Virus record (IMG/VR): IMGVR_UViG_3300025066_000136
Location: 1 to 25,690 of that record
Length of the DNA: 25,690 nucleotides
Source of the DNA: a virus
Taxonomy: Duplodnaviria; Caudoviricetes
Reading direction: 5' to 3' (one strand)
Each line of letters opens with the position of its first letter. Position 1 is the first letter of the stretch. Shown here piece after piece: positions 4,407-23,721 of the stretch. Position numbers and translations under genes: made by a program. The notes beneath the pieces were generated by a model. It had not been told where the DNA came from and did not search any database. It saw only the letters and a list, made by a program, of their open reading frames with translations.

Positions 4407-4814
4407 ATGCGGAAGAAGATACTGTGGGGCATATTAATCTTACTAGCGATTGGGCACTTTGATTCCATCACTAATGGAGCAAACTACAACCAATCAAAGT
4501 ATGAAATATGGCAAGCAGGTGTAGCGTACCCGCATAGAGCAAAGATGGAGTGTCAGAATCAGGAGTTAGGATTCTCTATCAAAGTTGTGGTCAGAGAATT
4601 AGATGAGGACATAATGGCTCACTGGCTTCCTGGGAAGGATACGATTGAATTTCAGCCAGGAGTTACAGACATAGATACTATCGCTCATGAGGTCTATCAT
4701 GCCACTCAGACTATGAAGCAAAGATATGGTCTAGGGTACGATGAAGAATTATCAGCATATATGCAAGGTGGAATGACAGGATGTGTATATAAATTAATCC
4801 ATAACGTACGATGA
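4407..4814 (+). CDS. Membrane-anchored or exported zincin-like metallopeptidase
   Basis: N-terminal basic plus hydrophobic segment (MRKKILWGILILLAIG); TIAHEVYHA (HEXXH) with a downstream EELSAY third-ligand motif. Confidence 0.7.
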   Translation: MRKKILWGILILLAIGHFDSITNGANYNQSKYEIWQAGVAYPHRAKMECQNQELGFSIKVVVRELDEDIMAHWLPGKDTIEFQPGVTDIDTIAHEVYHATQTMKQRYGLGYDEELSAYMQGGMTGCVYKLIHNVR

Positions 4815-5062
4815 AAAAAGGATTTACATTAATTGAACTACTTATTGTTATCGCCATTGTAGGAATCCTGTCAGCCGTTGCTCTTGCAGGAGTACAGGAT
4901 AGACATGAAGAATATGGTGGTGATTCAAATTATAGAATCTGTGGTAGTGGTAGATGCTATAACGTAGAATATTACACAAAGGAGCAGAACTGTGTGTTCC
5001 TTTCAGAAGAAGAAGTAAGAGTTTGTGGTGATTACAGTATTACCAAGCTGAACGTAGAGTAG
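4811..5062 (+). CDS. Type IV pilin-like protein (class III signal peptide, N-methylation motif), 83 aa
   Basis: MKKG|FTLIELLIVIAIVGILSAVALAG with Glu at +5; short soluble domain with four Cys; ATGA overlap with the peptidase stop. Confidence 0.9.
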   Translation: MKKGFTLIELLIVIAIVGILSAVALAGVQDRHEEYGGDSNYRICGSGRCYNVEYYTKEQNCVFLSEEEVRVCGDYSITKLNVE

Positions 5063-7638: not shown

Positions 7639-7703
7639 TTAAAATAGTCTGTATACTATTCGGCACGACCCTTCTTATTGGCTTAATTAGATTGTGTTGG
7701 TGA
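7626..7703 (+). CDS. Possible 25-aa single-TM peptide (MQTLIKIVCILFGTTLLIGLIRLCW)
   Basis: Hydrophobic mini-ORF with AATAAATG context filling the gap; very short. Confidence 0.35.
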   Translation: MQTLIKIVCILFGTTLLIGLIRLCW

Positions 7704-7720
7704 CTATCAGGAGTTATACT
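7692..7720 (+). promoter_or_regulatory. Sigma70-type promoter giving a predicted leaderless mRNA
   Basis: TTGTGT (7692-7697), 17 bp, TATACT (7715-7720); the ATG begins at 7727. Confidence 0.55.
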
Positions 7721-7726
7721 TTTCTT

Positions 7727-8410
7727 ATGAAGGGAATAATATTAGCAGGAGGTCAAGGAACAAGACTACGACCTCTAACATATTTAACAAACAAGCACCT
7801 ATTACCTATCTATGACAAGCAGATGGTTCTATATCCTCTACAAACTCTCAAAGATATGGGAATAGAGGACATTCTTTTAGTCACTGGAGGTGAGCATATC
7901 GGACAATTTGCCGAATTACTAGGAGATGGGTCTGAATATGGGGTGAAATTGACCTATAAAGTCCAGAAAGAAGCTGGTGGTATTGCTCAAGCTCTACTAT
8001 TAGCTGAAGATTTCGTTGACGATGAGTCATTTGCCGTTATTTTGGGAGATAATATCTTTGAATATCCAGTCAAATGTCCTACAGGTTGTGGAATTGTAGT
8101 AAAAGAAGTAGGTGACCCTGAGAGATTTGGTGTATATCAAGACGGAGAGATTGTAGAGAAGCCAGAAAAACCTAAGTCTAATGATGCTGTATTAGGATTA
8201 TATTTCTATACCAGAGAGATTTTTGACTTTATCAAGACTCTGAAACCTTCTGCAAGAGGAGAATTAGAGATTACTTCGGTGAATAATTGGTGTTTAGCTA
8301 ATGTCGAGTCAAATATTTTACGCTATGATGGATTTTGGTCAGATGCTGGTACACTAAAGTCTATCCAGAAGTGTAATGAGTGGGCTTCAACTAGGAATGT
8401 GTTAGAATAA
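7727..8410 (+). CDS. rfbA: Glucose-1-phosphate thymidylyltransferase-like sugar nucleotidyltransferase (short form, 227 aa)
   Basis: MKGIILAGGQGTRLRPLT...NKHLLPIYDK, ILGDNIF, EKP, PSARGELEIT, WSDAGT. Start moved to the ATG at 7727. Confidence 0.92.
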   Translation: MKGIILAGGQGTRLRPLTYLTNKHLLPIYDKQMVLYPLQTLKDMGIEDILLVTGGEHIGQFAELLGDGSEYGVKLTYKVQKEAGGIAQALLLAEDFVDDESFAVILGDNIFEYPVKCPTGCGIVVKEVGDPERFGVYQDGEIVEKPEKPKSNDAVLGLYFYTREIFDFIKTLKPSARGELEITSVNNWCLANVESNILRYDGFWSDAGTLKSIQKCNEWASTRNVLE

Positions 8411-15064: not shown

Positions 15065-15076
15065 AATGGTACAATT
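15065..15076 (+). promoter_or_regulatory. Extended -10 promoter (late motif, copy 2)
   Basis: AATGGTACAATT upstream of scaffold and capsid; small hairpin GGCAG/CTGCC at about 15099-15117. Confidence 0.65.
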
Positions 15077-15789: not shown

Positions 15790-16725
15790 ATGACTCAAGT
15801 AGTATCAAATGATGTTAGTGCAATCACACCTGAATTATGGTCAAGCATGGTACAGGTTCCTTTGTACAAGTCTCTTGTTGCTCTAGAGGTTGCAAACACT
15901 CGTTTAGAGAATGAATTGCGAAATGCGGATACAATCCACATGCCACGATTCGGTGACCTTTCAGCACAGACTTATACTCCAGGCACAACAATCACAGCCA
16001 CAGCTCAAGACTGGGCATACGACACACTTGTGGTTTCAGCTTACAAGCATGTTACATTCTATGTAGACAATGTTGAGCAACTACAAGCTAACGTAGACCA
16101 AGCACGAGAACTGGCTACAGAAGCCGCTTACAGACTACGTGACTCTATTGACACTCACGTATTCGCAAACATTACTGGAACAGATGGATTTACAGTCGCT
16201 GACGATGAAGACCTTCTAGGAGGAACAAACGCACGACCTATCTCAGCAGGTACAGCAAACATCATCAACTTGTTTGCAGGTGCTCGAAAAGTTCTACGTG
16301 AGAACAACGTAGAAGAAATGGGAGATTGGGTAACTGTTGTTACACCTAAGGTTGCAGCCGACATCGAAATCAAGGCAGCTAACGTTGGATTCAACGTAGC
16401 AGATGCCACTCTTCGTAATGGTTATGCTGGAGACTTCATGGGATTCCAAGTGTACATCTCAAACAACCTACCATCAGGTAGCGTTTCAGCGATTGCACCT
16501 CAAATTTCAGGAGGAGCAGTTTCAGCTACAACAGCCACATCTATGTACTTCGGACGAAAAGGAACTATTGATGTAGTTCTACAAAAAGCACCCGCTTTGG
16601 AAATTCGTCAGAAAGATGACATGATTGGTGCAAACTTCATTACCTACACAGTTTATGGTTCAAGTGTATTCACAAAGAACCGTTCACGAGGTTTGAACGT
16701 TGCAGTTGACGCAGCATTTGCCTAG
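15790..16725 (+). CDS. Major capsid protein (P22 coat-like, HK97 fold)
   Basis: ITPELWS, DTIHMPRFG, AAYRLRDSID, NGYAGDFMGFQVYISNNLP and VYGS motifs; strongly biased codon usage. Confidence 0.92.
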   Translation: MTQVVSNDVSAITPELWSSMVQVPLYKSLVALEVANTRLENELRNADTIHMPRFGDLSAQTYTPGTTITATAQDWAYDTLVVSAYKHVTFYVDNVEQLQANVDQARELATEAAYRLRDSIDTHVFANITGTDGFTVADDEDLLGGTNARPISAGTANIINLFAGARKVLRENNVEEMGDWVTVVTPKVAADIEIKAANVGFNVADATLRNGYAGDFMGFQVYISNNLPSGSVSAIAPQISGGAVSATTATSMYFGRKGTIDVVLQKAPALEIRQKDDMIGANFITYTVYGSSVFTKNRSRGLNVAVDAAFA

Positions 16726-16744
16726 TCCTTTCGACTAAGTTGTT

Positions 16745-16792
16745 TATCGCCTATTCTACTCACTTTGGAGTAGGCGATACAAAGTGAGAGTA
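16745..16792 (+). promoter_or_regulatory. Post-capsid hairpin with an alternative pairing and no U-tract
   Basis: 13-bp stem 16745-16757 / 16767-16779; CTCACTTTG (16759-16767) is complementary to CAAAGTGAG (16780-16788). Confidence 0.65.
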
Positions 16793-16822
16793 ACTTAGAT
16801 ACTACTTATTAACTTAACGATT

Positions 16823-17038
16823 ATGAAAATATTTTACCGTTGGTTAGCAAAAAGCCGACTAATTAGAAGATACAAATATCTTATTGAAGTGAATAATATT
16901 CTAGAGGAATATATTACTCACAAGATTACTCAAGGTGGTAGTTCAGAATTTCTGACAAAAGCCCGACAAGACTTGGTAAACAAGCAAGCAGAGATTAAGG
17001 AGACTTCTGCTATGTTGGACTTCTTAAAAAAGGTGTAA
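16823..17038 (+). CDS. Hypothetical protein (71 aa), first gene of the glycan block
   Basis: Basic amphipathic N-terminus; A/T-rich initiation context. Confidence 0.7.
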   Translation: MKIFYRWLAKSRLIRRYKYLIEVNNILEEYITHKITQGGSSEFLTKARQDLVNKQAEIKETSAMLDFLKKV

Positions 17039-17051
17039 TATAATATTATCT

Positions 17052-18167
17052 ATGAAAATACTGTTTATGACAGATAGCCAGATGTGTTTCCAATCTGGAA
17101 TCTGGTGGCACAGGATAGAGATGCCAACAAGAGCTTTGGAAAAAAGAGGACATGCTGTTAAGCAAGTTGCTATTGGAGCTGAAGTACCAGAAGCATTAAT
17201 GGAGTGGCCAGATGTTGTAATCTTTGGTCGTTCTTATGCAGAGTGCTTTGACCCTGTTAAGATAATGCGTGATTACAAGAAGAGAGGTACACGAGTATTG
17301 TACGATATGGATGATGATTTCTGGGAAGTAGCCGAACATAATCCATCAAGTCTTGTATCTAATGCCCATAAAGACCAATACGAAGGCATGATTAAAGAGG
17401 CTGATGTAGTAATTACTCCAAGTAAGAATCTAGCCAAGAAGTTCAAGAAACACTTCAAGAAGCAGAAGGTAATGATTTGCCCTAACGCTATTGATACCAA
17501 GGAATACAAACCACGACCTAAGCAAATGGATAGACCAGTTATTGGGTACATGGGGGCAGCTTCACACTGGAAAGACCTACAGCTTATTGGAGAAGTAATT
17601 GAAGACCTATCAAAAAAGTACGATTTCTTCTTCACTATCTACGGAATTACAGGTGATGCTCTTGAAGCAGCGTTGTATATGTACAACAAGATGTACAAGA
17701 TGAATCTAAAGCCAGAGCAGAATGAATACTTCAAAGCTGCCTTGGAATTTAGAGACCAACTGAAAGAAACTAAACTCCTACACATACCTTTCATGCCACC
17801 AGAATTACATCCTGGGGTACTTTCACGTTCTGACTTTGACATTGGTATTGCTCCTCTAGAGGATACTGAGTTCAACAAAGGAAAATCTTGTGTGAAATTC
17901 TATGAGTATGCTGGTGTAGATACTGTAACTCTAGCTTCTGACGTAGAACCCTATAAATCAGAGGTTAATTATCGAGCCAAGAATACTAAAAAGGATTGGT
18001 ACAACAAACTAGAGAAGTTACTGGTAGATAAAGACTTTAGAGAGAAGACTCTGGCTGAACAACAGAAGTATGTTCTAGAGAATAGAACTGTTGAAACTGT
18101 AGGTGTTGATTGGGAAGTAGCCTTACAAAATCAAGACGGAATTAAGACTCGTAACCAAAGGAAATAA
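17052..18167 (+). CDS. GT-B fold glycosyltransferase (GT4-like)
   Basis: R..MP..AL, YDMDDDFW, AD.VIT.S..LA, PNAID, IGYMGAASH.KDL and DIGIAPLEDTEFNKGKSCVKFYEY. Confidence 0.88.
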   Translation: MKILFMTDSQMCFQSGIWWHRIEMPTRALEKRGHAVKQVAIGAEVPEALMEWPDVVIFGRSYAECFDPVKIMRDYKKRGTRVLYDMDDDFWEVAEHNPSSLVSNAHKDQYEGMIKEADVVITPSKNLAKKFKKHFKKQKVMICPNAIDTKEYKPRPKQMDRPVIGYMGAASHWKDLQLIGEVIEDLSKKYDFFFTIYGITGDALEAALYMYNKMYKMNLKPEQNEYFKAALEFRDQLKETKLLHIPFMPPELHPGVLSRSDFDIGIAPLEDTEFNKGKSCVKFYEYAGVDTVTLASDVEPYKSEVNYRAKNTKKDWYNKLEKLLVDKDFREKTLAEQQKYVLENRTVETVGVDWEVALQNQDGIKTRNQRK

Positions 18168-18168
18168 T

Positions 18169-19035
18169 ATGAAGGTTCACATCCAAGACCACAATCAAAT
18201 CTTGGGGGACATTCGTAAAGAATTTGAGGTTGTTGAGAAGTTAGATGAAGCTGATGTTCTGTTTATCTGGAACGATGTGTTGTCTGTAGAACGTTCTATC
18301 ATTGATTATGCAAAGAAACGGAAGATTAAGACTTATGTGTTTGAACATGGTAGACGAGGCTCTTCAAAGTATTACCCTCCATTCAACGAAGAAATCTATG
18401 CAGACACGATGTTTGTTTGGGGAGAATTAGACAAAGAGAGGTTAATTGAAGCTGGTAGAAAGAAGAAAAAGATTAAAGTCGTAGGTACCACCGTTTTCTC
18501 TCATCTCAAAGGGAGGAAGGAACATGAAGGTATAAATGTCGTCTTCTGTCCTGAACATTGGGATAAGCCAGTAATTGAGAATCAGCAAGTACGGAAAGAA
18601 TTGAACAAATTGAAGGGAGTAAATATCGTTACTAAGCTGATTGATATGCACGACCCAAGTTTGTTTGATAATCCTATAATCTCAGACCGAAGGAGTCCTG
18701 ACCATCTAGATATTTGTGCTGATGTTCTATCTACCGCAGACCTTGTGGTGGGTGTTGCTGAAGGAACATTTGAGTTAATGGCACAGGCTCTAGACATTCC
18801 AGTTGTGACAATGGAGGAGTGGTCTCCTAAGGCGTTTGGGGGTGATGAGAAGTATGAGGTATACACTCGTCATATATCTCCAGCATCTAAGAGAGCAACG
18901 ATGGATAATCTTCTGGAGGTGATTCAATCACAGCTAGATAATCCAGATGAACTGAAAGAAGAGAGAAAGAAAGCTGTAGAAGACGAGGGAGGAATGAGCT
19001 TAGACACAATCAAATTAATAAAAGAACAATTATGA
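18169..19035 (+). CDS. GT-B fold protein, putative nonulosonate or polyol-phosphate transferase
   Basis: FEHG, D..FVWGE...E.L...G...KIKVVG and ADLVVG..EGTFELMA..LDIPVV resemble capsule-synthesis transferases; a UDP-GlcNAc 2-epimerase-like role is not excluded. Confidence 0.65.
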   Translation: MKVHIQDHNQILGDIRKEFEVVEKLDEADVLFIWNDVLSVERSIIDYAKKRKIKTYVFEHGRRGSSKYYPPFNEEIYADTMFVWGELDKERLIEAGRKKKKIKVVGTTVFSHLKGRKEHEGINVVFCPEHWDKPVIENQQVRKELNKLKGVNIVTKLIDMHDPSLFDNPIISDRRSPDHLDICADVLSTADLVVGVAEGTFELMAQALDIPVVTMEEWSPKAFGGDEKYEVYTRHISPASKRATMDNLLEVIQSQLDNPDELKEERKKAVEDEGGMSLDTIKLIKEQL

Positions 19036-20285
19036 AAATAAAAGATACAATCAGCGAATTATTTAAATTCAACCGATGTCTATTGGGAGAAGGATATGAT
19101 AATGCGATGGAGTATATTAATCAGTTGGTAGGGGTGGAAGTTACATCAGTTCCTAGTGGGACAGAATTAGGAACATGGACTGTACCTGATGAGTGGGTTA
19201 TACGGGATGGTTGGATTAAATTCAATGGAAAGAAGATTGTTGATTACAAGAAGAATCCTCTTTCAGTAGTTGTTGGTTCTATGCCAATCCATAAGAAAGT
19301 TAAAAGGGCTGAGCTATTGAATCATCTCTACTACAATGAAGAGAGACCAGATGATTACAAGTATGAATATAAGTTCTATGACAAGGACTGGGGGTTCACT
19401 ATGCCCTATAACAAAGTTAAGGACGAAGAAGGTAAGGTGATTCTAAAAGAAGGAGAGTATGAGGTATTTGTAGATGCTGAATATAAGCCTGGTAATCTAA
19501 AGTATGGGGTGCATACTATTCCAGGTAAGACAGATAGAGAAATACTTCTATTCGCCCACCTAGACCACCCATATCAGGCTAATGATAATCTATCAGCAGT
19601 AGCTTGTTTATTGGACTTAATTAAGGATGCTAAGAAGGCTAACTTTGACCATACAATCAAGCTAGTATTCTGCCCTGAAACTATTGGTTCTCAAGCGTAC
19701 GGTTATACGGAAGACCTTTCCAAGGTTGATTTTGTAGTGGCCGTAGACATCTGTGGTAATGACAATCCTCTTCTATTCCAGAAGTCATTCGATGCAGACC
19801 ACATTCTCAACAAGATTACTCACAGTGCCTTTCACACACTGGCTCGTCAGTACAGAAAGGGACAATTCCGAAACCTAATTGGTTCAGATGAATATTTCTT
19901 CAATGACCCTAATGTAGGTATCCCAGGAATAATGTTGAGTCGTCATCCATATCCTGAGTATCATACAGATAAAGATACTCCAGATATTATTGATGAGAAG
20001 ATGGTGCATGAGACAGGAGAGGCTATTCTGAAGATGATTGAAGTCTACGAGAATGACTTTATCCCTAAGAGATTAGCAAAAGGTTCTCTGATGAGAAGTC
20101 GTTATGGGTATCAAACTCTAAGTCCACAAACAAACCTAACTCTGGATTACTTCTACTACTCAATAGATGGAAAGAAGACTCTTGCTGAGTTGTGTTGTGA
20201 TTATGGTCTTAGCTTTGACCACATGAAAGAATTATTAGAAAAAATTGAAAAAGATGGAAAACTTGAAAGGGTTAATAATAGCTAA
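19032..20285 (+). CDS. DUF4910/DUF2172 M28 aminopeptidase-like protein with C-terminal winged helix
   Basis: R.L.GEG, SGT....WTVPDEW, HLY...ERPD, Y.Y.FY...WGF, HLDHP..ANDNLS, PETIGS, GSDE..F, YPEYHT..D and DGKKTL. Confidence 0.88.
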   Translation: MKIKDTISELFKFNRCLLGEGYDNAMEYINQLVGVEVTSVPSGTELGTWTVPDEWVIRDGWIKFNGKKIVDYKKNPLSVVVGSMPIHKKVKRAELLNHLYYNEERPDDYKYEYKFYDKDWGFTMPYNKVKDEEGKVILKEGEYEVFVDAEYKPGNLKYGVHTIPGKTDREILLFAHLDHPYQANDNLSAVACLLDLIKDAKKANFDHTIKLVFCPETIGSQAYGYTEDLSKVDFVVAVDICGNDNPLLFQKSFDADHILNKITHSAFHTLARQYRKGQFRNLIGSDEYFFNDPNVGIPGIMLSRHPYPEYHTDKDTPDIIDEKMVHETGEAILKMIEVYENDFIPKRLAKGSLMRSRYGYQTLSPQTNLTLDYFYYSIDGKKTLAELCCDYGLSFDHMKELLEKIEKDGKLERVNNS

Positions 20286-20826
20286 ACAAAATAGCAATAG
20301 GCTTCCAGGCAAAAACACTCTAGACTTTAATGGTGAGCCAATGTTCCTAACGAATGTGAAGAAATGTCTAGAAATCTTTGATGAGGTATACGTCAGTTCT
20401 GACAGTAAGGACATCTTGGCTCTTGCGGAAGAGGTTGGAGCTAAGACAATCATCAGAGGAGAGGAACTTTGTGGTGAGACTCCTAATGTGAAGGTCTATC
20501 AACATGCTATTAAGCATATGGGAGATGTTAGCGGTATTGTTGCAGTTCAGGCTAATAGCCCCACTGTGGAATCAAAGAATATATTACTAGCAAAGTATCT
20601 ATTGGAAGCAGGATTACAGGAAGTAATGACCAGCCATCCTGTGGTACATCAGAAGAAGTATCATGACCAGAACGCTAAGATATATGGTTCGGTATGGGGA
20701 ATGTCAAAGAATAGGCTTGAGCATTACCCAGACCCATATAAGCCTAATCCTGATGCTTTACTGACGGATTATAGTATTGATATAGAGACAATAGATGAGT
20801 ACCAAGAAGCATTAAAAACTAATTAA
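20254..20826 (+). CDS. neuA: Acylneuraminate cytidylyltransferase family (CMP-nonulosonate synthetase-like)
   Basis: IIAKQNSNRLPGKN, FDEVYVSSD, QANSP and SIDIET motifs; adjacent to neuB. Confidence 0.82.
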   Translation: MENLKGLIIAKQNSNRLPGKNTLDFNGEPMFLTNVKKCLEIFDEVYVSSDSKDILALAEEVGAKTIIRGEELCGETPNVKVYQHAIKHMGDVSGIVAVQANSPTVESKNILLAKYLLEAGLQEVMTSHPVVHQKKYHDQNAKIYGSVWGMSKNRLEHYPDPYKPNPDALLTDYSIDIETIDEYQEALKTN

Positions 20827-20834
20827 TAATTACC

Positions 20835-21902
20835 ATGATTAAGATAGGAAATAAAATATTAGGAGAGAAGCCATACATCATTGCCGAGTTTGGCGTGAAT
20901 CATAATGGCTCTTTAAAGAGAGCAAAAGAAGGTATTAGAAAAGCTGCCCATGCTGGTGCAGATGCAATAAAATTCCAGACATATACAGCAGATGAGCTTG
21001 TATGTAAGGGTACGCCCAAATTCTGGGAGTTTGAAGAGGACGAGGAAAAAGACCAACATGAAGCTTATGAAGGTCTAGGGGGAGAACCAATGGAATGGTA
21101 TCCCGAACTGATGAAGTATTGTGAGGAGTGTGGAATTGAGTTCATGACTACTTGTTTTAGTGCTGAAACTGCTGACCACTTCAATGAACTAGGAATGAAA
21201 GCATTTAAGGTAGCATCCTCTGATATGTCTACAATTCCGTATCTAAAGCATATTGCTAGATACAATAAGCCAATCCTTCTATCAACAGGGGCTTCTACAA
21301 TGGAAGAGATTGAGGAGGCTGTACAAGCTATCAAGGAAGAGGGCAACAATCAGATTGTGGTAATGCACTGTACTCTTTGTTACCCAACAATGTATCCTGA
21401 CAGAGAGGTACATTATGAAGATGCTAATTTATCAATTATTCAGACCCTAAAAGCTAAGTTCCCAGATTTAGTGATAGGAATATCTGACCATACTCAGACT
21501 CCATCTTCTTCAGTTATAGCTTACGCTATGGGAGCTGATGTTATTGAGAAACACTACACAGTAGACAAGACACTGGGTAAGTCAGCCGACCACTGGTTCT
21601 CAGTTGACCCCGAAGAATTGAAAGAGATTGTAGATAATTGTAAAGAAGTCCAGACACTCAAAGGTACGGCAGAGAAGAAAGTATTTGACTGTGAGAAAGA
21701 AACTCGCTTACACGACAAACGGAGTATTGTATTGAAAGTAGATGTTAAGGAGGGAGATGCAATCACAGAAGATATGTTGACCTATAAGAGACCAGGAACA
21801 GGTATCTGGCCATCAGAGTTAGATGAAGTAATTGGTTCAACAGCTTCTGAAGATATTAATAGAGATAATCCACTACAATGGCAGCAACTAAAAAGGAAAT
21901 AA
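20835..21902 (+). CDS. neuB: N-acetylneuraminate/nonulosonate synthase with C-terminal SAF domain
   Basis: PYIIAEFGVNHNG, GADAIKFQTY, FKVASSD, LSTGASTMEEI, MHCT..YP, GISDHT, IEKHYT, DH.FS and KRPGTGI. Confidence 0.95.
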   Translation: MIKIGNKILGEKPYIIAEFGVNHNGSLKRAKEGIRKAAHAGADAIKFQTYTADELVCKGTPKFWEFEEDEEKDQHEAYEGLGGEPMEWYPELMKYCEECGIEFMTTCFSAETADHFNELGMKAFKVASSDMSTIPYLKHIARYNKPILLSTGASTMEEIEEAVQAIKEEGNNQIVVMHCTLCYPTMYPDREVHYEDANLSIIQTLKAKFPDLVIGISDHTQTPSSSVIAYAMGADVIEKHYTVDKTLGKSADHWFSVDPEELKEIVDNCKEVQTLKGTAEKKVFDCEKETRLHDKRSIVLKVDVKEGDAITEDMLTYKRPGTGIWPSELDEVIGSTASEDINRDNPLQWQQLKRK

Positions 21903-22450
21903 TGAAAGACCTTAAAGATGTTATGGCCGTCTTTAAGAGATTTGGAGTAGAGGCCTATCTATCTTATGGAGCAGTTCTTGGAGCTGTGCGAGATGGAGAC
22001 TTTATCCCCTGGGATGATGACATTGATATTGATGTTATAGACGATATTCCTTTTGAGGTTAGAAAGGCAATAGGTTGGGCACTATATGATATTGGTTTTA
22101 ATCCCCAACCAATCTCTTTCAATATCTTTGGAAGGATGGAGTTAGCTGAATTAGGGTACAACGGAGATGCTGAAACAGGAATCATTGTTTGTGAGAGAAA
22201 CTTCCCATTTTCAATATTCTTCTATAGGGAAGAGGGAGATGAAATGGTTTGTACTCCGAAGGTAGGTTGTAGAAAGCTCCTTAGCGTACCTACTAAGTTC
22301 TACAAGAAACCTGATACAGTTAAACTACATAGGACTAAGTTCAAGACACCAGGCCCTGTTAAAGAGTATCTGACCTACGTCTATGATGACTGGAAAGAAC
22401 CAGTTAAAGATTATCACGCACCTAAATACGAAGACCGACATGCAAACTAA
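21902..22450 (+). CDS. LicD-family nucleotidyltransferase-fold phosphotransferase
   Basis: YGAVLGAVRDGDFIPWDDDIDI and P...KEYLT.VY.DWK.P; start set at the TAATG overlap with neuB. Confidence 0.88.
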   Translation: MKDLKDVMAVFKRFGVEAYLSYGAVLGAVRDGDFIPWDDDIDIDVIDDIPFEVRKAIGWALYDIGFNPQPISFNIFGRMELAELGYNGDAETGIIVCERNFPFSIFFYREEGDEMVCTPKVGCRKLLSVPTKFYKKPDTVKLHRTKFKTPGPVKEYLTYVYDDWKEPVKDYHAPKYEDRHAN

Positions 22451-22973
22451 ACATTGGAAAGATTTTTACGAATCACATAAAGAAACACAAGGAGCTAGTT
22501 CTTTTGCTAAGTTCACCTTACGTCTAATGAGAGATAGTGGAGGGAAGGTTGTAGACCTCGGCTCAGGAGACGGGCGAGACACTAACTTCTTTAAGAAGTG
22601 GGATATAGACGTTACGCCAGTTGATATTGCTACGACAGGAGTATCAGTAAAGGATTATATGAAAGACAATTCATCTCCGAAGTATGTATATACCAGATTC
22701 TTCTGGCATGCTATCTCCAGAGAAGAACAGCTAGCTATATTAGAATGGGCTTCTGATTACGTCTTAATTGAAGCCAGAACTACAGATGATGAGGGAAGGA
22801 CAAAGATATATGATGACCACAACAGAAACTATGTTGATGTTAATAAATTAGTTAGTGACCTGAAGTATCATGGCTTTGAAATAAGGTATCTGGCAGAAGG
22901 TACTAACTTCTCTAAGATGGAAGATGAAGACCCTCATCTTGTAAGAGTAGTAGCTCATAAAACAAAGAAGTAG
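22440..22973 (+). CDS. Class I SAM-dependent methyltransferase
   Basis: HWKDFY, SSFAKF, VVDLGSGDGRDTNFF, YTRFFWHAI, IEART and H.R.YV; start moved to the ATG at 22440. Confidence 0.82.
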   Translation: MQTKHWKDFYESHKETQGASSFAKFTLRLMRDSGGKVVDLGSGDGRDTNFFKKWDIDVTPVDIATTGVSVKDYMKDNSSPKYVYTRFFWHAISREEQLAILEWASDYVLIEARTTDDEGRTKIYDDHNRNYVDVNKLVSDLKYHGFEIRYLAEGTNFSKMEDEDPHLVRVVAHKTKK

Positions 22974-22990: not shown

Positions 22991-23002
22991 AATGGTATAA
23001 TT
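22991..23002 (+). promoter_or_regulatory. Extended -10 promoter (late motif, copy 3)
   Basis: AATGGTATAATT right after the glycan block, before the adaptor gene. Confidence 0.7.
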
Positions 23003-23025: not shown

Positions 23026-23721
23026 ATGAATGTAACTGATTTAAAAGCAGATGTAGACTTTTTGTGCGGTTCTACCTCTGCAACATACCCAGATGCAGAT
23101 AAGATTAGAAACATTAATATTGCTTACCAAGATGTAGCCCGAACTATTTGGGAATCTGCTGACGGTTGGCAATATGACGATTCTAATGCAACAACCTTAC
23201 CAATCGCTAAGGCTAATATGGTGCATACCCAGCAGGATTACTCTATACCTTCTACAGCTCAGAGAATACAGCGTGTAGAGGTTAAAGATTCCGCAGGTAA
23301 TTTTAAGAAGCTAAAGCAGGTTGATATACACGATGTAACTATCGCTATGGGTGAATTTAATGAGACACCAGGACTACCAGTCTATTACGATGTGGTTGGC
23401 CGTTCTTTGATGTTATATCCGACACCAGCATCAGGGAGTGTAACTTTATCAGCAGGTTTGCAGTTGTACTTTGATAGGGATATTGAGGACTTTGCAGTAT
23501 CAGCTTCAACTGAAACACCAGGGTTTGCAAAACCATTCCACAGATTACTTTCTTATGCAGCTTCAATAGATTTTGTACGAGATGACAATGAAAAGAGAGT
23601 ATTGGCAGAACAGAAGAAACGACTATCTGATGGTCTTACAAGATTCTATGGAAAGCGTAACGTAGAGTACAAATCAACGATTAAGCCTGCTGGTAAGAAG
23701 AGGTGGCGACAATACTTGTAA
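23026..23721 (+). CDS. Head-to-tail adaptor protein
   Basis: IRNINIAYQDV helix, WQYDD, QQDYSIP, G.P.YY, LYPTP and P.F..PFHRLL.Y.A pattern of podovirus adaptors; position before tail genes. Confidence 0.75.
   Translation: MNVTDLKADVDFLCGSTSATYPDADKIRNINIAYQDVARTIWESADGWQYDDSNATTLPIAKANMVHTQQDYSIPSTAQRIQRVEVKDSAGNFKKLKQVDIHDVTIAMGEFNETPGLPVYYDVVGRSLMLYPTPASGSVTLSAGLQLYFDRDIEDFAVSASTETPGFAKPFHRLLSYAASIDFVRDDNEKRVLAEQKKRLSDGLTRFYGKRNVEYKSTIKPAGKKRWRQYL

Follow-up and report, generated by a model that had tools for sequence, protein, structure and literature searches.

The virus record IMGVR_UViG_3300025066_000136 was analysed as a single stretch of 25,690 bases (the window), in which the head genes are arranged in the order terminase, portal, scaffold and capsid. 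Eight open reading frames (ORFs) on the + strand occupy the 6.3 kb separating the capsid gene (15790-16725) from the gene for the head-tail adaptor (23026-23721). They are collectively called the block here, a module of genes that is fixed throughout a phage family. It probably builds a charged glycan, bearing a self-made ulosonic (sialic-acid-like) sugar, on virion proteins, the most likely acceptor being the major capsid protein. By analogy, this would most likely resemble the virion glycosylation of the mycobacteriophages Corndog and Che8, with donor synthesis of its own added.

A fixed module between the capsid and adaptor genes

Capsid and transferase queries gave 86 capsid-bearing contigs, 66 of them distinct at 95% capsid nucleotide identity. 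Six distinct phages ending less than 700 nucleotides (nt) past the capsid gene were set aside and 60 were counted, including one contig identical to the window. In every one of these 60, all with at least 700 nt of downstream sequence, the gene for a glycosyltransferase, GT1, lies no more than 1.5 kb downstream of the capsid gene. GT1 also follows the capsid gene in 56 of the 56 distinct phages recovered by the capsid query alone. The capsids of the relatives are 48 to 81% identical to that of the window. The complete-block set was taken from the first 73 contigs (57 distinct), 21 of which reach the adaptor gene. Here, GT1, a second transferase (GT2), a DUF4910 protein, NeuA and NeuB are all present and keep their order in 21/21 blocks, while the small first ORF is found in 20 and LicD in 19. 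Block size ranges from 6.3 to 13.3 kb, that of the window being the smallest, and two more complete blocks, near-identical to each other, match the same pattern. A first-pass annotation of the window had proposed synteny of capsid, glycosyltransferase, neuAB and adaptor genes as a positional test; inside the family this order held, both in the 60/60 phages and in the 21/21 complete blocks.

The link between block and capsid survives replacement of the terminase. In 12 of 40 phages this enzyme is less than 35% identical to that of the window, and the capsid gene is still followed by the small ORF and GT1 in every one of the 12. Five relatives are near-complete, with genomes of 41-45 kb. A wider protein search returned 530 capsid clusters with E-values of 1e-40 or lower, and the contigs of the 120 best NeuB relatives are all 82 kb or shorter, as expected for a viral clade. 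No close relative was found among cultured phages, where capsid identity is at most 30%, GT2 and DUF4910 are unmatched, and NeuB occurs in 3 of 50,697 records. A host assignment from two contigs of metagenome-assembled genomes with relatives (Ca. Paceibacterota and an unclassified bacterium) was dropped, as both contigs are phage from end to end.

Pieces from four other runs match the window at 99% or more, none alone spanning it. The gene order recurs in independent phages and therefore the block is not an assembly artefact. The G+C of its genes (0.38-0.40) falls in the range of the flanking structural genes (0.38-0.44), and so it is not a recent insert. In some relatives the region is interrupted: LAGLIDADG-type insertions split the capsid gene in L015, L048, L057, L086 and L094, and HNH genes lie between the small ORF and GT1 in L030 and L087.

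Gene content of the block

The features of the region, all on the + strand, are as follows.

15067-15075, +: extended -10-type motif 5' of the scaffold gene, the likely start of a scaffold-capsid-block transcript.
15790-16725, +: major capsid protein (HK97 fold), candidate acceptor; phrog_267, E 2e-37.
16737-16796, +: conserved structured RNA-like element after the capsid gene, with an outer stem, an inner stem and an apical segment complementary to a 3' bulge.
16823-17038, +: conserved basic, helical protein of 71 amino acids (aa), kept in 20/21 complete blocks and supported by alignment.
17052-18167, +: GT1, a GT4-like glycosyltransferase; phrog_7162, E 1e-34; PF13439, E 4e-5 (below cut-off).
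18169-19035, +: GT2, a compact GT-B protein of a phage-rich family, from its structure model; Epimerase_2, E 5e-4 (below cut-off).
19032-20285, +: DUF4910 / M28-fold protein; PF16254, E 2e-49; PDB 3k9t, E 4e-45.
20245-20826, +: NeuA-type synthetase of cytidine monophosphate (CMP)-ulosonate; PF02348, E 3e-13; in-frame ATG at 20254.
20835-21902, +: NeuB-family synthase condensing phosphoenolpyruvate (PEP), with a SAF domain; PF03102, E 3e-74.
21878-22450 (likely start 21902), +: LicD-family phosphotransferase; PF04991, E 2e-11, and alignment.
22383-22973 (likely start 22440), +: class I S-adenosylmethionine (SAM) methyltransferase; phrog_29440, E 1e-16; weak Pfam match, E 4e-4, below cut-off.
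22993-23001, +: extended -10-type motif 5' of the adaptor gene, read from the sequence.
23026-23721, +: SU10-type head-tail adaptor, which closes the block; PF24175, E 3e-12.

Pfam cut-offs are passed by DUF4910/Peptidase_M28, CTP_transf_3, NeuB plus SAF, and LicD; GT1, GT2 and the methyltransferase have only Pfam scores under the cut-off. The ORF calls and profile searches thus bear out the earlier description of seven glycan genes and a small ORF between the capsid and adaptor genes. The genes were also said to be near-abutting or overlapping, and the intergenic distances run from +13 nt down to overlaps. The 71-aa ORF matched no known family in the profile and family searches. Elsewhere in the window, a type IV pilin-like gene with an N-terminal methylation motif lies at 4811-5062, and an RmlA-like nucleotidyltransferase gene at 7694-8410, directly 5' of the small terminase gene. 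In relatives L093 and L111 an RmlA-like gene stands at the end of the glycan block and therefore this enzyme may supply the GT1 donor.

Transcription of the block

The extended -10 motif precedes the scaffold gene in 13/54 distinct phages, against 0.66 expected, and the adaptor gene in 9/21 relatives, against 0.48 expected. Before block genes it occurs in 1/54 (GT1), 1/48 (GT2), 0/39 (DUF4910), 0/30 (NeuA), 0/28 (NeuB) and 1/24 (LicD) cases, and the search for it across relatives found no conserved promoter motif inside the block. As the motif is enriched at the scaffold and adaptor genes and not at the block genes, the block most likely shares the scaffold-capsid transcription unit. A promoter of GT1's own was considered and rejected: the -35/-10 match at 17016-17044 does not exceed chance (33 matches found against 39.7 expected) and is conserved in only 1/54. 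A late promoter had been placed after the block in the first-pass annotation; what stands there is an extended -10 motif at 22993-23001, which the -35/-10 scan did not list. In many relatives, the extended -10 often stands 6-7 nt before the ATG of the adaptor, scaffold and terminase genes, and the starts are AT-rich. This short spacing, together with the AT-rich starts, suggests leaderless transcripts.

It had also been noted that no U-tract terminator follows the capsid gene. None was found, but a strong stem-loop sits at 16737-16796 (z -3.96, equalled by 0/200 shuffles), and a like structure recurs in relatives. The element has the form A-B-C-B'-C'-A' directly after the capsid stop codon, and its letters differ between phages while complementarity is kept. 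A crossing helix of at least 7 base pairs is present in 34/54 phages, compared with 38/270 shuffles and 3/54 coding controls. The element had no match in Rfam. It is possibly an attenuator, a processing site or a switch; since the two pairings look sterically exclusive, a switch, a processing site or intermolecular pairing would be possible.

Predicted enzymes

GT1 has a median pairwise identity of 0.60 across 21 phages and is likely to be the initiating transferase, using a nucleoside diphosphate (NDP)-sugar. Its relatives in cultured phages comprise 128 records below 60% identity; the ten organism words that are listed, with four more unlisted, do not include Mycobacterium. The nearest of these (23-27%) lie before the terminase gene in Zuko and among tRNA and glycosyltransferase genes in Mimi.

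GT2 is a protein of 288 aa that is GT-B by structure, with a model pLDDT of 94. In the VIA comparison its highest scores were with TarL (Z 17.6, root-mean-square deviation 3.4, 265 residues aligned) and TagF (16.6, 4.0, 265), followed by epimerases and GT4 enzymes at 16.1. A weak match to the N-terminal domain of Kdo (3-deoxy-D-manno-octulosonic acid) transferase is seen in 4/33 members of the GT2 family, whose atlas neighbours are mostly viral clusters and then TagF-like, LIC12162 and LA_1612 proteins. In the cultured-phage records, GT2 gave no match. The model makes it a candidate transferase for CMP-ulosonate or for a cytidine diphosphate (CDP)-polyol, or else an epimerase. We read it as a CMP-sugar transferase, since no other transferase without an assigned role is shared by all 21 NeuA-bearing blocks.

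Enzymes of the NeuB family condense PEP with a sugar, and those of the NeuA family make the CMP-donor. Family membership of the window's NeuB is clear from PF03102 (249.8 bits, cut-off 22.1), and its best solved relatives are SpsE (1vli, E 2e-58), PseI and SiaC. Alignment with SiaC shows that E25, K53, Q55, K129, S132, H215, E234, H236 and R314 are kept, and we take these residues to form the PEP/metal site; the proteins differ at two sites, with D for E134 and L for N184. NeuA scores 50.7 bits with CTP_transf_3 (cut-off 22.6), which places it among the CMP-ulosonate synthetases (NeuA/KdsB). Its N-terminal motif, K-x2-S-x-R-L-x2-K-N, is invariant in 22 sequences. Its best PDB match is CMP-Neu5Ac synthetase (1eyr, E 8e-8), and it is nearer NeuA than KdsB.

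In the DUF4910 protein, H176, D178, D239, D286, E287 and H311 are invariant in 25 sequences. It combines DUF4910, DUF2172 and the M28 fold with metal ligands, as does a Cj1295-like glycan modifier. By analogy with Cj1295, which we equate with DUF4910, it is likely to exchange or add N-acyl groups on the sugar. Passages of one report describe Cj1295 as PIRSF015244, an aminopeptidase-like protein often found near sialic acid synthases, and link it to an altered N-acyl group of the pseudaminic acid on flagellin (PMC3068675).

The 3' part of the block varies. LicD occurs with the window-type methyltransferase in 10 of the 21 complete blocks and with PEP mutase in 9, while 2 hold none of the three. 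The methyltransferase is found only beside LicD and never with PEP mutase, so that LicD would seem to be supplied either by the methyltransferase or by the phosphonate route. The phosphonate genes, next to LicD in L082, L083, L085, L087, L094, L097, L098, L100 and L111, encode PEP mutase, phosphonopyruvate decarboxylase, a cytidylyltransferase and, in 7 of the 9, an iron alcohol dehydrogenase, which are early steps of hydroxyethylphosphonate synthesis. The part of a phosphonate survey that bears on viruses reports PEP mutase from a single giant-virus metagenome-assembled genome and from none of the RefSeq viruses (PMC8942020). Other accessory genes encode GT-A transferases, methyltransferases including TylF and B12 radical SAM types, a sulfotransferase, GNAT, deoxythymidine diphosphate (dTDP)-glucose dehydratase and RmlA. 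All are of glycan-tailoring types. The sole clearly hydrophobic accessory family seen is a DUF6580 membrane protein in one block (L050:13558-14064).

NeuB itself occurs in a long and a short form. A small HAD (haloacid dehalogenase-type) phosphatase is present in 10/13 short-NeuB and 0/8 long-NeuB blocks, and a GT-A glycosyltransferase in 7/8 long-NeuB and 1/13 short-NeuB blocks; these are patterns and not p-values, as the phages are related and not independent samples. The window has the long NeuB and no GT-A.

The capsid as candidate acceptor

Capsid residues 229-252 form a variable, uncharged loop with 31% Ser plus Thr, compared with 15% elsewhere (39 sequences). Going by P22/T7-like capsids, this loop presumably faces outward. 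The fold matches of the capsid model are phage capsids, the top one being Che8 (8e16, 19% identity), a likeness that shows no function. N-glycosylation sequons were considered as conserved sites in the capsid and set aside, as they are not universal.

GT1 and capsid distances correlate at 0.83. Given the portal, the partial correlation with the capsid is 0.69 for GT1, 0.46 for GT2, 0.64 for DUF4910 and about 0 for NeuA and NeuB. When gene trees were compared for the 21 complete blocks, the supported splits common to GT1 and the capsid numbered 5 and those common to GT1 and the portal 6; for DUF4910 the figures were 2 and 2. Co-evolution specific to the capsid was therefore rejected, and the GT1-capsid correlation may be linkage, because the gene-tree splits do not prefer the capsid. 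The reading that we keep, from these comparisons, is that the transferases would stay with the head module while donor genes swap.

NeuB loci outside the family

The NeuB profile is estimated to mark about 1,100 viral stretches. The best 80 of 536 confirmed ones were examined, and 76 of these lie outside the family. Structural genes were recognised by PHROGs annotation of multi-member clusters only (71/130 representatives and 0/503 singletons annotated), and the counts are therefore lower bounds. A recognised structural gene is in the locus in at least 28/76 (23 distinct). In unrelated phages too, NeuB can lie three ORFs or fewer from a head gene (13/76 loci), and at least three further layouts have NeuB near head genes, for example terminase-NeuB-dehydrogenase-NeuA-methyltransferase-portal. 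In one unrelated HK97-type head module, found in L133, L137-L139, L165-L167, L169, L174, L175, L183 and L187, terminase and portal enclose genes for NeuB, a short-chain dehydrogenase, NeuA and an FkbM methyltransferase. In L134 (13288-14163) and L182, the order terminase-NeuB-portal is followed by a PF01973 (MptE-like) protein, a domain that we take to occur in Maf flagellin nonulosonate transferases.

A proposed route and its alternatives

In the proposed route, the glycan would be assembled in the cytoplasm, during particle assembly, from a precursor sugar supplied by host metabolism. GT1 would place the first sugar on capsid Ser/Thr, with loop 229-252 as the best candidate site, and GT2 would then add the ulosonate from its CMP-donor. 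DUF4910 would alter the N-acyl group of the ulosonate, and LicD would add a phospho-substituent, with the donor shaped by the methyltransferase here and, in nine relatives, by the hydroxyethylphosphonate pathway. Particle coats would then vary as donor modules are exchanged. The 'shield' is one possible purpose of such a glycan. A broader proposal falls somewhat short of being probable and is offered tentatively: the family, a widespread one of small tailed phages, would spend 14-30% of its genome on core capsid glycosylation with its own sialic-acid-like sugar, about half also making their own phosphonate, the variants would amount to swappable 'glycan serotypes', and unrelated phages would have recruited NeuB and NeuA to head operons independently.

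Several results weigh against glycosylation of the virion with a self-made ulosonic sugar. The donor route is incomplete: neither a NeuC-type epimerase (PF02350 above cut-off) nor a sugar aminotransferase (PF01041) was found in the five near-complete relatives, and a dehydratase gene is present in just 6/21 complete blocks. The precursor enzymes of a complete neuraminic, legionaminic or pseudaminic acid (Neu/Leg/Pse) nonulosonate pathway are thus not in place; the precursor would therefore come from the host or be made by GT2, and the sugar is possibly something other than a classical nonulosonate. NeuB scores below the equivalog cut-offs (TIGR03569, 318 vs 399.65; TIGR03586, 278.5 vs 340.25), and because both the NeuB and PseI cut-offs are missed its product cannot be named. 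It is, in addition, long with a SAF domain in 8/21 relatives and short without one in 13/21. The earlier claim of a self-made nonulosonate is therefore upheld as to the NeuB and NeuA families but not as to the precursor enzymes or the class of NeuB.

The transferases and the acceptor add further doubt. The GT2 fold ties between TagF/TarL, epimerases and enzymes of the GT4 type, and its 50 rows of fold matches contain no sialyltransferase, which excludes nothing. In phi92-like phages the relatives of GT1 adjoin primase and polymerase genes. Ser/Thr/Gly-rich loops may be common in glycan-free capsids. The capsid and portal trees share only 2 supported splits, and the gene trees conflict widely. 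Lastly, 48/76 of the other viral NeuB loci are without a recognised structural gene, including six giant-virus contigs and large sugar clusters. The position in the family, the shared transcript motifs and the lack of lysogenic-conversion marks speak for the claim, made in the first-pass annotation, that the glycan is on virion proteins; the loci outside the family, most of which have no recognised structural neighbour, do not.

The enzymes could instead remodel host surface glycans (S-layer, pilin, lipopolysaccharide (LPS), capsule precursors, cytoplasmic face), blocking superinfection or altering partner contacts, with the position next to the capsid gene serving strong expression only. LicD, TagF-like folds, DUF4910 and phosphonate pathways are indeed bacterial cell-surface glycan machinery (in passages of PMC3068675 and 10.1101/2020.11.04.368217), part of one report interprets variable cyanophage sugar clusters in this way (PMC7824862), and the window holds the pilin-like and RmlA-like genes. 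We nonetheless consider surface remodelling unlikely. The window's eight block proteins have no membrane segment (highest 19-residue hydropathy 1.32, compared with 2.93 for the pilin-like protein and 2.49 for an SPFH protein of the window) and are predicted to be soluble. Tyrosine integrase, resolvase, GtrA and thymidylate-synthase-fold genes were found in 0/5 near-complete relatives, with positive controls, while an endolysin gene was found in one and DNA methyltransferase genes in two. The pilin motif is missing from 5/5 of these relatives, likewise with positive controls, yet the block is universal. Late co-transcription with the capsid would leave scant time for surface turnover, and cyanophage clusters are sporadic whereas the core here is fixed.

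A second alternative keeps glycosylation of the virion but makes GT2 either a hydrolysing epimerase like NeuC or a polymerase of polyol phosphate like TagF; another enzyme would then attach the acid sugar, or the coat would be a polymer resembling teichoic acid. Epimerase_2 is the sole Pfam match of the window's GT2 (and is found in 5/33 family members), TarL and TagF head the VIA rows with GNE and NeuC at most 1.7 Z behind, and an epimerase would supply the missing precursor step. However, those scores are weak and below cut-off, GT2 is shorter than epimerases of 360-385 aa and is the same whether NeuB is long or short, and no second candidate for the CMP-sugar transferase is common to all 21 blocks. 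This alternative is improbable.

It is very unlikely that the block hypermodifies phage DNA with sugars before packaging, as a protection against restriction. To our knowledge NeuA, NeuB and LicD have no DNA role. No thymidylate-synthase-fold hydroxymethylase was found in the five relatives (0/5 genomes, control 10/14), two of which carry ordinary DNA methyltransferases, and replacement of the terminase does not part the block from the capsid. A search for TET/JBP dioxygenases matched 0/5 genomes with its controls also silent, and so is uninformative. The proposal draws on the location of GT1 relatives beside primase and polymerase genes in phi92-like phages and on GT-B enzymes that glucosylate phage DNA, the T-even precedent given in part of PMC9614988. 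That the product is a free small glycoconjugate or phosphonate inside the cell (for counter-defence or as a metabolic sink) is likewise very unlikely: although accessory B12 radical SAM, TylF and phosphonate enzymes are shared with natural-product clusters, two transferases and CMP activation indicate a macromolecular acceptor and the head-module position is fixed.

Comparison with known systems

Among tailed phages, a few mycobacteriophages are the known cases of virion glycosylation, and donor sugars of a virus's own making are known from giant viruses. If the proposed glycosylation of the virion is correct, particle glycosylation would belong to the core traits of environmental phages, for which antibodies are irrelevant, and the purpose of the coat (adsorption, aggregation, grazing, proteolysis) becomes a testable question. 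The small soluble enzymes with a defined likely acceptor would gain a 288-aa GT-B, a 190-aa NeuA, a 230-aa NeuB and DUF4910, and many 'auxiliary metabolic' sugar and phosphonate genes of viromes would serve the virion and not the host. Among literature listings and the starts of abstracts, which leave subscription papers and supplements uncovered, no paper on a phage with NeuB/NeuA in its virion operon was found.

By the tests run on these sequences, the block belongs neither to the classical Neu/Leg/Pse pathways nor to the Gtr conversion systems. It shares phage-borne glycan genes that vary between relatives with gtrABX serotype conversion and with the LPS-type clusters of cyanophages. Unlike these, it has no GtrA flippase, membrane transferase or other membrane protein, no integrase or other sign of a temperate lifestyle, and its core is fixed in the head module. 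The Campylobacter flagellin Pse locus (Cj1295) and the Bacillus sps operon (SpsE) have in common with it a NeuB-family synthase, a CMP-synthetase, an aminopeptidase-like modifier and methyltransferases. In contrast to these loci, the block is viral and is without detected precursor enzymes or a Maf-type transferase.

Giant viruses (chlorovirus, Mimivirus) make their own donor sugars, the Kdo route of CroV and Fadolivirus being predicted only (in part of PMC9614988). There, as here, donor synthesis is clustered with glycosyltransferases, the sugars vary between clades and an ulosonic-acid pathway is predicted. As far as that text extends, the differences are eukaryotic hosts, genomes of 0.3-1.5 Mb and a Kdo8P synthase route, as opposed to a NeuB-type route in tailed phages of 41-45 kb.

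Phage-encoded glycosyltransferases also link the block to the mycobacteriophages. Passages of PMC12363180 (citing Freeman 2023) and PMC11256854 report glycosylated virion proteins in Che8, Corndog and Myrna. In Corndog, an O-methyltransferase and three glycosyltransferases sit inside the head operon, between portal and protease, and are proposed in part of PMC4351075 to modify the capsid. The block shares with these systems glycosyltransferase and methyltransferase genes in or linked to the virion operon. The passages on these phages name no NeuB/NeuA, LicD, DUF4910 or phosphonate genes for them; they place the genes between portal and protease or at the genome end, and in phages of other hosts, whereas the block described here belongs to the core of an entire family.

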